Notes: a model not told the origin generated them from the sequence alone. A DNA stretch of 64,000 nt from Dongiaceae bacterium (GCA_050182275.1 JBFXCK010000002.1:86397-150396); one strand, 5' to 3'; counted from the first letter of the stretch, positions 2,978 through 61,758 are shown. Numbers and translations are program-made.

Positions 2978-3048
2978 CTCATCCTTCGACTAAGCTCAGG
3001 ATGAGCTGAATTTATAAATAGCTCATGGTGAGCTTGTCGAACCATGAG
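2978..3048. repeat. Paired palindromic hairpin repeat, locus 1. The first hairpin has a CTCATCCT stem with the reverse-orientation loop. The second has a CTCATGGT stem with loop GAGCTTGTCGA.
   Basis: gctcatccttcgactaagctcaggatgagc (2978-3006) and gctcatggtgagcttgtcgaaccatgag (3021-3048), lying between groES and groEL. The same family occurs at four other loci in the window. Confidence 0.6.
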
Positions 3049-3078
3049 TGCCAGGAAAATCTCAAAGGAGAAATTATT

Positions 3079-4731
3079 ATGGCTGCAAAACAATTATTAT
3101 TCGCTGAAGAAGGCCGCAAACGTTTAGCCCGTGGCGCTATGATGGCTGCTACGGCGGTTGGCGCAACCTTAGGCCCGTCTGGCCGCACGGCGTTATTGCA
3201 AAAATCTTTTGGCGCGCCGCGCATCACCAAAGACGGCGTAACGGTCGCCAAGGAAATCGAATTGCAAGACCCAATTGAAAATATGGGTGCGCAAATGATC
3301 AAGGAAGCCGCTTCCAAAACCGTAGATCAGGCCGGCGATGGCACGACTACAGCTTCGGTGCTGGCGGGAGCTTTGATTGACGACAGCTTGAAGTATTTGA
3401 TGGCCGGCGCCAATGTTACCGATTTGCGCCGCGGCATGGAAATGGCCTCAAGCGCTGTTGTTGAAAAATTGCTGAAAATGGCCAAGAAGGTTTCGGGCAA
3501 TAATGAAATCGCCCAAATCGGCACCATTTCGGCCAATGGCGACAAGGAAATCGGCGATATGCTGGCCAAGGCCATGGATAAAGTGGGCCATGAAGGCGTT
3601 ATCACTGTTGAAGAAGCCAAATCGATGGAAACCGAATTGGATGTTGTTGAAGGCATGCAATTCGACCGTGGCTATATCAGCCCCTATTTCGTAACCAATG
3701 CGGAAAAGATGGTGGCTGAACTCGATAATCCTTTCATTTTGGTTTATGAAAAGAAATTATCGGGTCTGCAAAGCTTGCTGCCTTTATTGGAAGCGGTTGT
3801 GCAATCGGGCCGCCCCCTAATGATCATTGCCGAAGATGTAGAAGGCGAAGCCTTGGCCACGCTCGTGGTCAACAAGCTGCGCGGCGGCTTGAAAGTGGCT
3901 GCTGTCAAAGCCCCCGGCTTTGGCGACCGCCGCAAGGCCATGCTGGAAGACATTGCGATCTTAACCAATGGTCAAATGATCAGCGAAGATTTGGGCATTA
4001 AGCTGGAGAACGTTAATTTGAAAATGCTCGGTCAAGCGAAGAAAGTGGTGATCACGAAAGAAGAAACCACCATCATCGACGGCTCGGGCAAAAAAGCCGA
4101 TGTGGAAGCGCGTTGCGATCAAATCAAGGCGCAAATCGATGAAACTTCGTCCGACTATGACAAGGAAAAGCTGCAGGAACGCTTGGCTAAGCTTTCCGGC
4201 GGCGTGGCTGTTATCCGCGTTGGCGGCGCCACCGAAGTCGAAGTCAAAGAACGCAAAGACCGTGTAGAAGACGCCATGCACGCAACCCGCGCTGCCGTTC
4301 AAGAAGGCATCGTGCCGGGCGGCGGTGTGGCCTTGATTTATGCTGGCAAGGCCTTAGATGGCTTGAAGCCTGCTAATGACGATCAACGCGCCGGCATCGA
4401 TATTGTCAAACGCGCCCTCCAAGCCCCGTTGCGCAAAATTGCGTCGAATGCGGGTGAGGATGGATCGGTTATTGTTGGCAAAGTCATGGAAGGCAAAGAC
4501 ACCAATTTCGGCTGGGACGCCTATAAGGGCGAATACACCGATTTGGTGAAAGCCGGTATCATCGACCCCGCCAAAGTGGTGCGCACCGCGCTGCAATCGG
4601 CCGTATCGGTCGCCAGCCAGTTGATCACCACCGAAACCGTCATCGCCGATATTCCGAAGAAGGAAGAATCGCATGCCGGCCATGATCATGGCGGCGGCGG
4701 TATGGGCGGCATGGGCGGAATGGGTTTCTAA
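3079..4731 (+). CDS. groEL: Chaperonin GroEL (60 kDa)
   Basis: [13 protein letters not shown]... with the Gly-Met-rich C-terminus [16 protein letters not shown] aaggag at 3065-3070. The ORF-track start at 3025 is an upstream in-frame extension; 3079 is preferred. Confidence 0.96.
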
Positions 4732-4757
4732 ACGAATCCAATTCGGCTTAAATAAAA

Positions 4758-4787
4758 GGCGGCCTATAAATTGGCCGCCTTTTTTTA
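4758..4787 (+). terminator. Intrinsic terminator after groEL
   Basis: GGCGGCC-TATAAATT-GGCCGCC stem-loop followed by TTTTTTTATT. Confidence 0.7.
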
Positions 4788-4848
4788 TTCCCCTTGCAAA
4801 AATCCGCCTTCTATACAAAAGTAGAAAATCAACCAGGGAGAGCCAAGC

Positions 4849-59823: not shown

Positions 59824-59825
59824 AA

Positions 59826-59892
59826 GCATGGTTCGACAAGCTCACCATGAGCTTGTTATTTATGCTCATCCTGAGCTTGTCGAAGGATGATC
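59826..59892. repeat. Paired palindromic hairpin repeat, locus 4
   Basis: gcatggttcgacaagctcaccatgagc and gctcatcctgagcttgtcgaaggatgatc, between glpX and recJ. Confidence 0.6.
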
Positions 59893-59916
59893 GTAACAAA
59901 AAAATAGAGTAAAAAA

Positions 59917-61674
59917 ATGTTGGCAGTAGAAGCACCGTATAAATTATCTTTCCTGAACAAGGCGTGGGAAATCGCGTCTTGCGAAGAGCGCTTGATCTAT
60001 GGCCTAACGCAGCAATTGGGCATTGGCGATATTGCGGCGCGGCTGTTGGCGCAGCGCGGTATTAACAACGATAATGCGGCCGCCTTTTTAAATCCCACTT
60101 TACGCGATCATTTGCCTGATCCAGCCGGTTTAACGGATATGGATAAAGCGGTTGCGCGCCTGGCAACCGCGATTCAAAATAAAGAAACCATCGGCATTTT
60201 TGGCGATTATGATGTGGATGGCGCCTGTTCATCGGCCTTGATTGTAAATTATTGCAATCAATTGGGCGTGAAAACGGAAGTGCATATTCCCGACCGGCGC
60301 GAGGAAGGCTATGGCCCCAACATCGGCGCTTTGGAAAAATTGCTGGCCAAGGGCTGTAAATTGATTGTGACGGTCGATTGCGGCGTTACCGCGCATGCGC
60401 CCTTGGCCTCGATCACCGGGCAGGGGGCCGAGGTGATTGTGGTTGACCACCATATGGCCGAGGCTGCCTTGCCCAAGGCCTATGCGGTGATTAACCCCAA
60501 CCGGCTTGATTGCGATTTTCCGCATAAAAATTTGGCGGCGTGCGGCGTTGTGTTCATGCTGCTGGTGGCGCTGAACCGCGCTTTGCGCGAAGCGGGAATG
60601 AATAATTTGCCGGATTTGCGCCAATTCCTTGATTTGGTGGCGCTTGGCACGGTGGCCGATGTGGTGCCGCTGACGGGACTTAACCGTTTATTGGTTTTGC
60701 GCGGGCTTGAGGTTTTGAATCAACGCCAGAATTTGGGGCTAACCCAGTTAAGCGATGTGGCGCGATTGAAAGAACGGGCCGATGCCTATCATCTTGGATT
60801 TATTTTGGGTCCGCGCATTAATGCCGGCGGCCGCGTGGGGAAGGCCGATTTGGGCGTGCGCTTGCTTACCACCGGCGATATCGGCATGGCACAGAAAATT
60901 TCCGGTGAATTAGAGGCGCTTAATGTCGCCCGTCAGCAAATCGAACGCACGCAAGTGGAAGAGGCGATTGCACAAGTGGAAATGGAATATCGCGATGATC
61001 CGGTCATCATTGTTGGCGGGCGCGGCTGGCATTTGGGCGTGATTGGATTAATTGCGGCGCGCATTAAAGAAAAATATCAACGCCCGGCTGCTGCCTTGGC
61101 ATTCGAGGGCGATATTGCAACCGCATCGGCCCGCTCGGTGAAAGGTTTTGATATGGGCGCTGCTGTGCTGGCGGCGGTGCAGGCCGGCATTTGCTTGAAG
61201 GGCGGAGGGCACGCCATGGCGGCGGGATTCACCATTTCGCATAAGCGTTTAAAAGATTTGCGCGCCTTTATGCAGGAGCGTTTCGCCGCAAGCGGCGTTC
61301 CGCTTTATCCAACTTTAAATGTTGACGCCATCCTCTCGGGCGCCGCGCTTAATTTTCAAGTTTACGCGCATATTCAACAGCTCGGCCCCTTTGGCACCGG
61401 CAACCCCGAGCCGCGCTTTTTGCTGCAAAGCCAGCTGGTGGAATATGCCGATATTTTAAAGGGCAGCCATTTGCGCCTGAATTTACGCTCGGCCGATGGC
61501 GCGCGCCTAAAGGGCATCGCCTTCCGCGCCATGCAAAGCGGCCTCGGCGAAGCGATTTTGGGCAACCGCGATAAACCCCTTGATATCGTGGGAAGTTTAA
61601 AATTAGACACCTATAATGGCGGCCAGCGCCTGCAATTCATCGTCGATGACGCCAGGATTGCAGCGGGGTTTTAA
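59917..61674 (+). CDS. recJ: Single-stranded-DNA-specific exonuclease RecJ
   Basis: DHH motifs GDYDVDGACSSA and VVDHH. DHHA1 domain. 585 aa. Confidence 0.95.
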   Translation: MLAVEAPYKLSFLNKAWEIASCEERLIYGLTQQLGIGDIAARLLAQRGINNDNAAAFLNPTLRDHLPDPAGLTDMDKAVARLATAIQNKETIGIFGDYDVDGACSSALIVNYCNQLGVKTEVHIPDRREEGYGPNIGALEKLLAKGCKLIVTVDCGVTAHAPLASITGQGAEVIVVDHHMAEAALPKAYAVINPNRLDCDFPHKNLAACGVVFMLLVALNRALREAGMNNLPDLRQFLDLVALGTVADVVPLTGLNRLLVLRGLEVLNQRQNLGLTQLSDVARLKERADAYHLGFILGPRINAGGRVGKADLGVRLLTTGDIGMAQKISGELEALNVARQQIERTQVEEAIAQVEMEYRDDPVIIVGGRGWHLGVIGLIAARIKEKYQRPAAALAFEGDIATASARSVKGFDMGAAVLAAVQAGICLKGGGHAMAAGFTISHKRLKDLRAFMQERFAASGVPLYPTLNVDAILSGAALNFQVYAHIQQLGPFGTGNPEPRFLLQSQLVEYADILKGSHLRLNLRSADGARLKGIAFRAMQSGLGEAILGNRDKPLDIVGSLKLDTYNGGQRLQFIVDDARIAAGF

Positions 61675-61689
61675 CGGATTTTTGGTACT

Positions 61690-61758
61690 GCTCATCCTGA
61701 GCTAGTCGAAGGATGAGCCTAGGCACAGATCCAACCCTTCGACAAGCTCAGGGTGAGC
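61690..61758. repeat. Paired palindromic hairpin repeat, locus 5. The second hairpin has a variant CACCCT stem.
   Basis: gctcatcctgagctagtcgaaggatgagc and ccaacccttcgacaagctcagggtgag, between recJ and tRNA-Glu. Confidence 0.55.

Follow-up and report, generated by a model that had tools for sequence, protein, structure and literature searches.

We report here that a 64,000-nucleotide (64-kb) stretch of a Dongiaceae metagenome-assembled genome (MAG; Rhodospirillales, Alphaproteobacteria; GCA_050182275.1 JBFXCK010000002.1:86397-150396), called the window hereafter, carries ten copies of a short hairpin unit at five intergenic sites. The ten copies probably belong to a dispersed palindromic repeat of the repetitive extragenic palindromic (REP) or bacterial interspersed mosaic element (BIME) kind, an apparently undescribed family that is turning over in intergenic spacers. 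The family is homogenised within genomes, so that every genome is marked by a single variant of its own. Strains of the same species differ by the gain or loss of entire doublets, and copies can persist at an orthologous site across species. The remaining content of the window is housekeeping genes.

Few non-coding features of bacterial genomes are as abundant as REP-type repeats. To our knowledge, the mechanism of their spread is known only for the class with the GTAG tag and a REP-associated tyrosine transposase (RAYT), mainly in Gammaproteobacteria, and we know of no mobilising enzyme for the alphaproteobacterial REP families. The present family provides a good handle on REP mobilisation, having both genome signature variants and a clean pair of filled and empty sites in sister strains. 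Moreover, since its 11-nt loop is effectively constant across phyla, the loop is usable as bait for the partner protein. The class of repeat is familiar; a loop conserved across phyla, with its implied partner, is not.

Hairpin units in the window

The units were first noticed in the sequence of the window alone, as two hairpins at each of five sites (the original prediction), and direct reading of the sequence places all ten within 1-2 nt of the positions given there (Table 1). A covariance model of the family (R1), built from 81 units that were all taken from other genomes, recovers with filters off exactly these ten units, with E = 4e-10 to 1e-5, and no eleventh unit anywhere in the 64-kb window; the site list of the original prediction is thus both accurate and complete. 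Beyond the window, R1 finds no further units in the adjoining 10 kb on the right (L001) or in about 7 kb on the left (L273). With the 12-mer core, nine matches with at most one mismatch occur in the window, the tenth unit (2977-3006) having a 1-nt insertion in the loop, and with at most two mismatches there are 16 matches versus 3.8 ± 1.9 expected, a number attained by none of 100 shuffles. By repeat finding, the units fall into families D5, D11 and D13, plus many inverted pairs.

A unit of the window has the form GCTCAT-SS-T / GAGCTTGTCGA / A-SS-ATGAGC. The CC/GG difference between stems is fully compensatory, as predicted, while the stem itself is 9 bp (GCTCATSST/ASSATGAGC), not 8, once the closing T-A pair is included. 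The spacers between the two hairpins are 11-18 nt, and not 10-40 bp as had been stated. In three units (59824-59852, 61730-61758 and 46698-46726) the outer stem is shortened or imperfect.

Four of the five doublets lie between genes of the same direction and begin 0-16 nt past a stop codon, and 21-30 nt are left for the next ribosome-binding site at the operon sites (72 nt before the tRNA). The neighbours GroES, GroEL, S2, EF-Ts, a PpiD-like peptidyl-prolyl isomerase, TIM and GlpX were identified by Pfam scan and RecJ by precomputed Pfam domains; tRNA-Glu was also identified. Both the intergenic placement and the neighbours are those that had been named. The further claim that these are highly expressed genes is more than five sites can establish: glpX and recJ are not obvious examples, and the genes beside copies in other genomes are ordinary metabolic genes.

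Table 1. Positions, types and surroundings of the ten hairpin units, and of the block that varies between strains
Feature	Position	Strand	Type and sequence	R1 match	Surroundings
Site 1 unit a	2977..3006	-	CC-type; GCTCATCCT / reversed loop TCGACTAAGCTC, 1-nt insertion / AGGATGAGC	2974-3009 (-), 38.6 bits, E=6e-8	starts 12 nt past groES stop codon
Site 1 unit b	3021..3049	+	GG-type; GCTCATGGT / GAGCTTGTCGA / ACCATGAGT	3018-3052 (+), 46.7 bits, E=4e-10	30 nt between its end and groEL start codon
Site 1 block	2972..3056	.	85 nt: CGGAA + unit a + 14-nt AT-rich spacer + unit b + GCCAGGA		absent from conspecific strain
Site 2 unit a	27394..27422	-	GG-type; loop TCGACTAGCTC	27391-27425 (-), 43.4 bits	starts 13 nt past rpsB stop codon
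Site 2 unit b	27439..27467	+	CC-type; loop GAGCTTGTCGA; just 7 bp paired	27436-27470 (+), 43.5 bits	21 nt between its end and tsf start codon
Site 3 unit a	46651..46679	+	CC-type	46648-46682 (+), 45.9 bits	divergent spacer, ppiD-like gene (- strand) and tpiA (+ strand); identical copy at end of Logan contig L280
Site 3 unit b	46698..46726	-	GG-type; loop variant GAGCCTGTCGA (- strand); imperfect outer stem	46695-46729 (-), 34.7 bits	same divergent spacer
Site 4 unit a	59824..59852	-	GG-type; truncated 5' arm, 6 bp paired	partial, 59827-59849 (-), 31.1 bits	abuts glpX stop codon
Site 4 unit b	59864..59892	+	CC-type	59861-59895 (+), 43.1 bits	25 nt between its end and recJ start codon; Logan contig L002 starts here
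Site 5 unit a	61690..61718	+	CC-type; loop GAGCTAGTCGA	61687-61721 (+), 45.7 bits	starts 16 nt past recJ stop codon
Site 5 unit b	61730..61758	-	CACCC-type; stem ACCCT/AGGGT plus GAGC	61726-61761 (-), 30.2 bits	72 nt between its end and tRNA-Glu

Unit structure and covariation

The family unit is a hairpin of about 29 nt, having a stem of 9-11 bp with compensatory variation and an almost invariant 11-nt loop, GAGC-YY-GTCGA. For 150 units from other genomes, which were not selected by stem, the covariation score is 0.403 compared with 0.199 ± 0.011 for shuffles (none of 500 attains the value) and 0.14-0.20 for slid registers, and a second measurement gives 0.421 versus 0.179. The stem pairs interchange AU with GC, UA with CG and CG with GC. 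Beyond the conserved 9 bp, pairs 10 and 11 are formed in 57% and 49% of units, respectively, with all four Watson-Crick types occurring; in the viral sample the well supported stem pairs are the inner five only. These scores, together with the compensatory changes at an orthologous site described below, bear out the idea that structure is conserved while sequence varies.

To the loop the following data apply. Among 44 hairpins that were picked by the stem alone and do not fit the scan pattern, 43 have the family loop, with the consensus GAGC-YY-GTCGA, so that the conservation of the loop is not an artefact of the way in which units were found; the loop length is 11 nt (13 nt with the closing T-A pair) in 41 of the 44. 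The sequence comparison supports selection on the hairpin, with a loop constrained far beyond what a hairpin requires, and such an excess of constraint implies a sequence-specific partner. Note also that the strand asymmetry of mismatches, a test for strand-specific RNA structure, gives no signal (42 G.T versus 63 A.C).

Doublet architecture and folding

All five doublets of the window join two different stem types in inverted order, the partner of the CC type being GG at sites 1-4 and CACCC at site 5, the loops of the paired units being in opposite orientations and the five AT-rich spacers being mutually unrelated. That each pair can form one longer stem, as was originally suggested, agrees with the single-strand folds, where the minimum-energy form of all five is a long hairpin in which unit 1 pairs with unit 2, the difference in stem type giving two symmetric 2x2 internal loops. 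The RNA folds have energies of -31.8 to -40.8 kcal/mol and z-scores of -4.5 to -5.7, with none of 200 shuffles folding equally well, and compared with two separate hairpins the long form is favoured by 10-20 kcal/mol (RNA parameters) or 5-11 kcal/mol (DNA parameters). The loops are mismatched in four of the five window doublets, and the matching of the two loops within a doublet (42% versus 56% expected) is not above chance; thus nothing points to a perfect long hairpin having been selected for. The local hairpin is the form conserved by evolution, though the long fold has the lower energy.

In 0.89 Mb from other genomes, 348 core matches make up 79 pairs, 21 larger clusters and 114 units that stand alone, the last being about half of all clusters. 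The two-unit clusters are inverted in 74 of 79 cases, and their family spacers of 0-43 nt are AT-enriched and almost all distinct (51 of 52). In a stricter recount, the same stem type is present on both sides in 2 of 59 inverted pairs versus 12.3 ± 3.0 under random pairing (p about 0.0005). Long perfect palindromes are unstable in bacteria. Because a same-type inverted pair is a perfect palindrome with about 29 bp per arm, purifying selection suffices to account for the deficit, and such pairs have presumably been removed by it. Concerning the doublet plus its spacer as the copied unit, the whole doublet varies between strains, but copies of the same genome share no spacer.

The larger clusters include slippage arrays with a period of 17 nt. 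Tandem arrays of partial units with this period, where GAGCTTGTCGAAGGAT is repeated up to five times, are located at L146:3319-3423, L157:5543-5615 and L131:3686-3847, and they apparently arose by slippage between two GAGC copies, one at the loop start and one where the stem ends on its 3' side. At L218:2040-2100 and L243:700-760 there is a nested or recombinant unit, where a CATGC-type 5' arm runs directly into a complete CGTCC-type unit, followed by the rest of the outer loop and then the outer 3' arm. Since two species share this arrangement, the nested unit is ancestral to both.

Distribution and lineage variants

The counts of stretches and assemblies given in this section come from a collection with one genome per species and cover the matches listed, and are thus lower bounds. 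We find the exact 26-mer CTCATSSTGAGCTTGTCGAASSATGA in more than 119 stretches from at least 85 assemblies among the matches listed, where the chance expectation is far below one. Among the matches listed, about 70 assemblies belong to many different alphaproteobacterial orders, and a Bordetella MAG adds one more; the other fourteen are four Acidobacteriota, six Chloroflexota, two Elusimicrobiota, one Planctomycetota and one Verrucomicrobiota. Judged by these sequence matches, the hairpin module is present in at least six phyla. Mis-binning cannot explain the phylum spread, because the carriers include a 3.99-Mb chromosome and a 5.37-Mb contig. Plasmid carriers are found in cultured Phyllobacterium, Nitratireductor, Novosphingobium, Rhizobium, Microvirga, Methylobacterium, Comamonas, Methylobacter and the cyanobacterium Gloeothece; the doublet is matched by 21 plasmid records, and among these there is no plasmid of Ensifer or of Sinorhizobium, the genus of the RIME / Sm-repeats. 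None of 5,426 complete E. coli genomes carries the element.

The uniformity within genomes is seen at stem position 9, which was left free in the search pattern and is the same throughout every genome, e.g. CCTC in 22 of 22 cases in one genome and GCTC in 8 of 8 cases in the window genome. Alphaproteobacteria, including three other Dongiaceae MAGs, have CCTC...GAGG, whereas the window genome has GCTC...GAGC, the variant otherwise typical of non-proteobacterial phyla (Chloroflexota, Acidobacteriota, Elusimicrobiota). The variant of the window is closer to that of distant phyla than to that of its own family. Exchange between lineages fits with this difference, and it also fits with the variation between sister strains of a whole doublet with a unique spacer (see below). 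A tentative reading, which we consider unlikely, is that the near-invariant loop, carried on freely covarying stems, is the recognition site of a widespread hairpin-specific enzyme or binding protein other than RAYT, the family then being the footprint of a new system that mobilises or processes the module and crosses phyla.

As for carriage by phages, the lone cultured-phage match is a bacterial contig mislabelled as phage, so that the IMG/VR matches, several of which are conserved coding matches, are not counted as evidence for it. The record in question (L272; MW462191.1, 55999-96027), labelled 'Bacteriophage sp.', is ordinary chromosomal DNA of a bacterium, with superoxide dismutase, class C beta-lactamase, Tet(X4), ABC transporter and fimbrial usher genes; in its full 103 kb the doublet query matches at 7 places (blastn).

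The element also has practical consequences. Its boundaries are points at which short-read assemblies break: three such contigs, each from a different sample, stop precisely there, as is expected since a multi-copy repeat breaks the assembly graph. Its translation gives spurious peptides, for example ...LSLSKDE... and ...FDKLRMS..., with the risk that predicted proteomes are contaminated. A covariance model of the family would improve the annotation of many environmental genomes.

Gain, loss and persistence of copies

The comparison between strains covers the groES-groEL site (site 1). The assembly GCA_050174445.1 (contig L274) encodes a GroES identical to that of the window, and around the site its identity to the window is 97.8% upstream and 99.35% downstream (blastn), by which the two are strains of the same species. 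Between groES and groEL the contig has a spacer of 24 nt, to which the window adds 85 bases (2972-3056) that hold the entire doublet; R1 finds zero units on the contig. The left border of the block is TAA and the right border AAA, the filled and empty sites sharing at most 2-3 A-rich bases. The groES-groEL doublet is dispensable, the sister strain being without it.

A 10-mer, TTTTAACGGA, is present to the left of two doublets, at 2966-2975 (site 1, directly adjacent) and at 61668-61677 (site 5, 11 nt off and overlapping the recJ stop codon); at site 1 its CGGA part falls within the block that the sister strain lacks. It could be a target preference, a part of the element or a coincidence.

At the other end of the window, 25 metagenomic recJ loci (134 kb; RecJ 44-56% identical) have zero units by R1. 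These relatives, found in metagenomes and a protein database and at most 56% identical, serve as a baseline of synteny and are too distant for an empty-site comparison at the level of bases. They have glpX upstream in 23 of 25 cases and tRNA-Glu on the same strand downstream in 16 of 25, and their recJ-to-tRNA spacer has a median of 176 nt with a classical terminator at its start, compared with a window spacer of 155 nt where the doublet is in the position of the terminator.

With these data the proposal that the hairpins are ordinary gene-specific intrinsic terminators or attenuators, alike by chance, is already refuted. The elements are absent from the syntenic relatives, which have genuine terminators, and from the sister strain; the same 26-mer stands beside unrelated genes in at least 85 assemblies among the matches listed; the transcription of groEL and tsf must pass through the elements; and four of the five sites have no T-run behind the hairpins. 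What accords with the proposal is the location of four of the five sites after a stop codon, and an alternative fold at 59835-59857 with an AT-rich tail, the only terminator-like candidate, which passes the terminator-like scan. Rather than a few conserved terminator copies or parts of a known RNA gene, we thus find many assemblies, variable sites and no overlap with Rfam (see below).

Persistence is seen in two alphaproteobacterial species whose flanking coding DNA is about 83% identical, both units being kept in the orthologous spacer while the other non-coding DNA is unalignable. The orthologous units differ compensatorily, CATCC/GGATG versus CATGC/GCATG, with the types exchanged between unit 1 and unit 2.

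By contrast with a spreading repeat, it can be proposed that the unit is a selected cis-acting RNA or DNA motif, with a host factor (a ribonuclease, an RNA chaperone or a nucleoid protein) binding the loop and with the copies tuning mRNA 3'-end stability or the ratios of operon genes. This would be consistent with the compensatory changes that preserve both hairpins at the orthologous site amid unalignable DNA, with the loop being almost invariant across phyla even in hairpins chosen by stem, with units standing directly after stop codons within co-transcribed operons, with the recJ doublet taking the place of the relatives' classical terminator, and with the transcription of a related inverted pair in Aggregatibacter as a small RNA (sRNA; RF02901; PMC5909427). 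If the proposal gave the whole explanation, however, it would be difficult to understand why both orientations occur and the mismatches have no strand asymmetry, why one window site is in a divergent promoter spacer, why the sister strain does without the groES-groEL doublet, and why copies are present in slippage arrays and inside the composites resembling MITEs (miniature transposable elements with inverted repeats) described below; in addition, a uniform variant per genome suits amplification or homogenisation better than site-by-site selection. We regard the proposal as distinctly unlikely when taken alone; it is compatible with the explanation by a dispersed repeat, as a spreading repeat can be domesticated.

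Comparison with known classes

As in the original prediction, no family can be named for the unit: the core sequence, its substrings and the translated peptides match only unrelated primers and peptides in the searchable literature, and with Rfam (release 15) only the tRNA and the rpsB leader reach the gathering threshold in the window, while in loci rich in the element, 131 kb from four phyla, no Rfam match coincides with the units. The best match below threshold is RF02901 (AaHKsRNA41, Aggregatibacter sRNA 41), with 25 bits versus a gathering score of 97 at positions 7-96 of the 187-position model. Its consensus has the inverted pair CUGAgCUUGcCGAAG...UUCGgCAAGcUCAg with almost the same core, although its source is gammaproteobacterial and its paper describes no repeat family (PMC5909427).

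The repeat at the five sites appears to be a REP/BIME-like palindromic family that is undescribed. Like REPs of 20-40 nt, the window units are short (about 29 nt), extragenic and imperfectly palindromic, and hundreds of copies are present in other genomes; unlike the GTAG-type REP, where the loop is 2-5 nt or the hairpin is long and bulged, the loop here is 11 nt. The GTAG type is rejected, as no GTAG or GTGG is found 0-2 nt 5' of the stem on either strand of any window unit. With the E. coli BIME (Y- and Z-type palindromic units), the doublets have in common that they are extragenic, often directly after stop codons within operons, that two stem types alternate in inverted order, and that the doublet can be folded as two hairpins or one long hairpin. 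They differ in the conserved 11-nt loop (short or bulged in BIMEs), in having no GTAG tag, in the unrelated segments between units (BIMEs use a few conserved linker motifs), and in the near-identity of sequence in at least six phyla, yet with absence from the E. coli genomes searched.

The CGTC-tagged REPs (Di Nocera et al. 2013, PMC3733652) are likewise mostly alphaproteobacterial and present in other phyla too, with no dedicated transposase known, 8-9 bp stems with complementary variants and frequent heterodimers. This class is nevertheless rejected, because its unpaired CGTC/TGTC tag, A-T stem base, 4-5 nt loop and CCA tail are all missing from the window units. As CIR of Caulobacter and Brucella is summarised in PMC2229807 (after Chen & Shapiro 2003), it is similarly intergenic, alphaproteobacterial and kept between species, with two inverted-repeat arms, a linker and a conserved motif in the terminal loop; in the same summary CIR is about 110 bp with the CcrM site GANTC in the loop, and is rejected here, the doublets being 65-76 nt and none of the 126 GANTC sites of the window lying inside them. 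We note that GANTC (the CcrM methylation site) is under-represented in the window as a whole, with 126 sites versus 183 ± 12 expected from shuffles.

Of the known systems, that of the REPIN (Bertels & Rainey 2011, PMC3116915) merits the closest comparison. In its classical form an inverted doublet replicates and is mobilised by a single-copy RAYT encoded elsewhere in the genome. Here, too, the inverted doublets fold to a single long hairpin, a whole doublet and not one unit is present or absent between strains, no target duplication is present (as expected of Y1 transposases), copies persist at orthologous sites, and the genome has its specific master variant. REPIN copies, however, have a common spacer, while the five window spacers are unrelated and 51 of 52 are distinct elsewhere; in other genomes single units make up about half of the clusters; the stem foot has no GTAG or GTGG tag; and the loop is 11 nt versus 2-5 nt in REPs. 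Near-identity across phyla also conflicts with the evolution of REPIN-RAYT systems, which is reported, in outline, as lineage-restricted and largely vertical. Moreover, no Y1 (RAYT) gene is present in the window or in the about 84 kb of the source genome examined, none recurs near copies elsewhere, where the genes enclosed by inverted units 1-2.5 kb apart are housekeeping or metabolic only, with no RAYT, and Y1 genes are scarce in Alphaproteobacteria. The RAYT whose search was recommended with the original prediction thus has no support in the window or around copies elsewhere, and we consider the REPIN-RAYT explanation improbable.

The label of a REP/BIME-like element has held, the copies being dispersed and turning over, while the alternative label of a MITE does not apply to the window copies, which have neither terminal inverted repeats (TIRs) nor target duplications and no conserved flanks beyond the hairpins. 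Two other genomes do have MITE-like composites that enclose the doublet. In an Acidobacteriota MAG a composite of about 225 nt with TIRs TTATTCCAAGGAGC/GCTCATTGGAATAA occurs in three copies, 96-100% identical (L128:4358-4582, L145:7017-7243 and L171:1165-1388), and in a SAR202 genome one of 167 nt has TIRs GTGTGTGAGAA/TTCTCACACAC (L139:2959-3125 and L242:4802-4968). Since the TIRs of the two composites are unrelated, the hairpin pair does not represent the transposon end but a passenger or a target. An origin of the family as a MITE from an insertion sequence, moved by a DDE transposase, would be consistent with these composites and could draw on the TAA and AAA that flank the 85-nt groES-groEL block; the unrelated TIRs, the chance-level direct repeats at 125 units, the lack of conserved flanks past the window hairpins and the absence of a transposase nearby make it very improbable.

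Proposed model and points against it

Based on the above, we propose the following model for the dispersed family. A unit would spread via a single-stranded hairpin intermediate, which a trans-acting enzyme, probably not a classical RAYT, would recognise through the conserved loop, and same-type inverted pairs would be purged as perfect long palindromes. Where the doublet is transcribed within operons (groES-groEL, rpsB-tsf, glpX-recJ), it would form a very stable long hairpin (-32 to -41 kcal/mol) in the transcript, which may impede 3' exonucleases or terminate transcription in part, like E. coli REP/BIME, for which mRNA 3'-end protection or partial termination has been described (PMC3733652). 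Such a role at the RNA level is plausible by analogy, and would be secondary and dispensable at a given site.

Several points weigh against this model. Full gene annotation reveals no transposase, integrase or HUH nuclease in the 64-kb window, an examination of recurrent gene families at 119 loci reveals no recurrent transposase in about 0.9 Mb around copies elsewhere, and Alphaproteobacteria have few or no Y1/RAYT genes (PMC6006769). The direct repeats flanking 125 units are at chance level, with no target motif in the flanks; without a target-site duplication or a target motif, transposition is not demonstrated. The polymorphism between strains might just as well reflect a precise deletion or the exchange of an allele through recombination, and the identity beside the groES-groEL site is unequal (97.8% versus 99.35%). 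Simple copy-and-paste, whether of a single hairpin or of a doublet, fails, as whole doublets are gained or lost and yet the spacers within a genome are unrelated. The RNA role is one that we infer, the mismatches being without strand asymmetry. Lastly, about 84 kb of the source genome were examined, the genome-wide copy number thus being an extrapolation.

Other observations

Near site 5, the loop in reverse orientation gives TCGACA with GATAAT 16 nt downstream, at 61739-61766 (+), which is the best sigma-70-like match in the region (10/12) and sits about 60 nt upstream of tRNA-Glu. Judged by sequence, units in reverse orientation could donate a -35 box. An rpsB leader (Rfam RF01815, 43.8 bits) is present at 26485-26591, upstream of rpsB; the rpsB-tsf operon therefore has a known 5' regulatory RNA plus an intercistronic hairpin doublet.

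The GC content at the right end of the window is 44.5% versus about 51% elsewhere, and just past that end there is a gene for a 1,407-residue ankyrin-repeat protein. Beyond site 5, this stretch (60000-64000 and L001:14114-18337) has no hairpin units.

Finally, we note that two tandem flagellin genes, at 13360-15240 and 15237-17108, have Flagellin_N and Flagellin_C ends and a large central FG-GAP repeat insert, with 100% identity over their first 300 nt (13345-13644 and 15222-15521). Immediately upstream of these genes, at about 13070 in window numbering as calculated from the coordinates, lies the end of the NCBI contig JBFWTN010000003.1.

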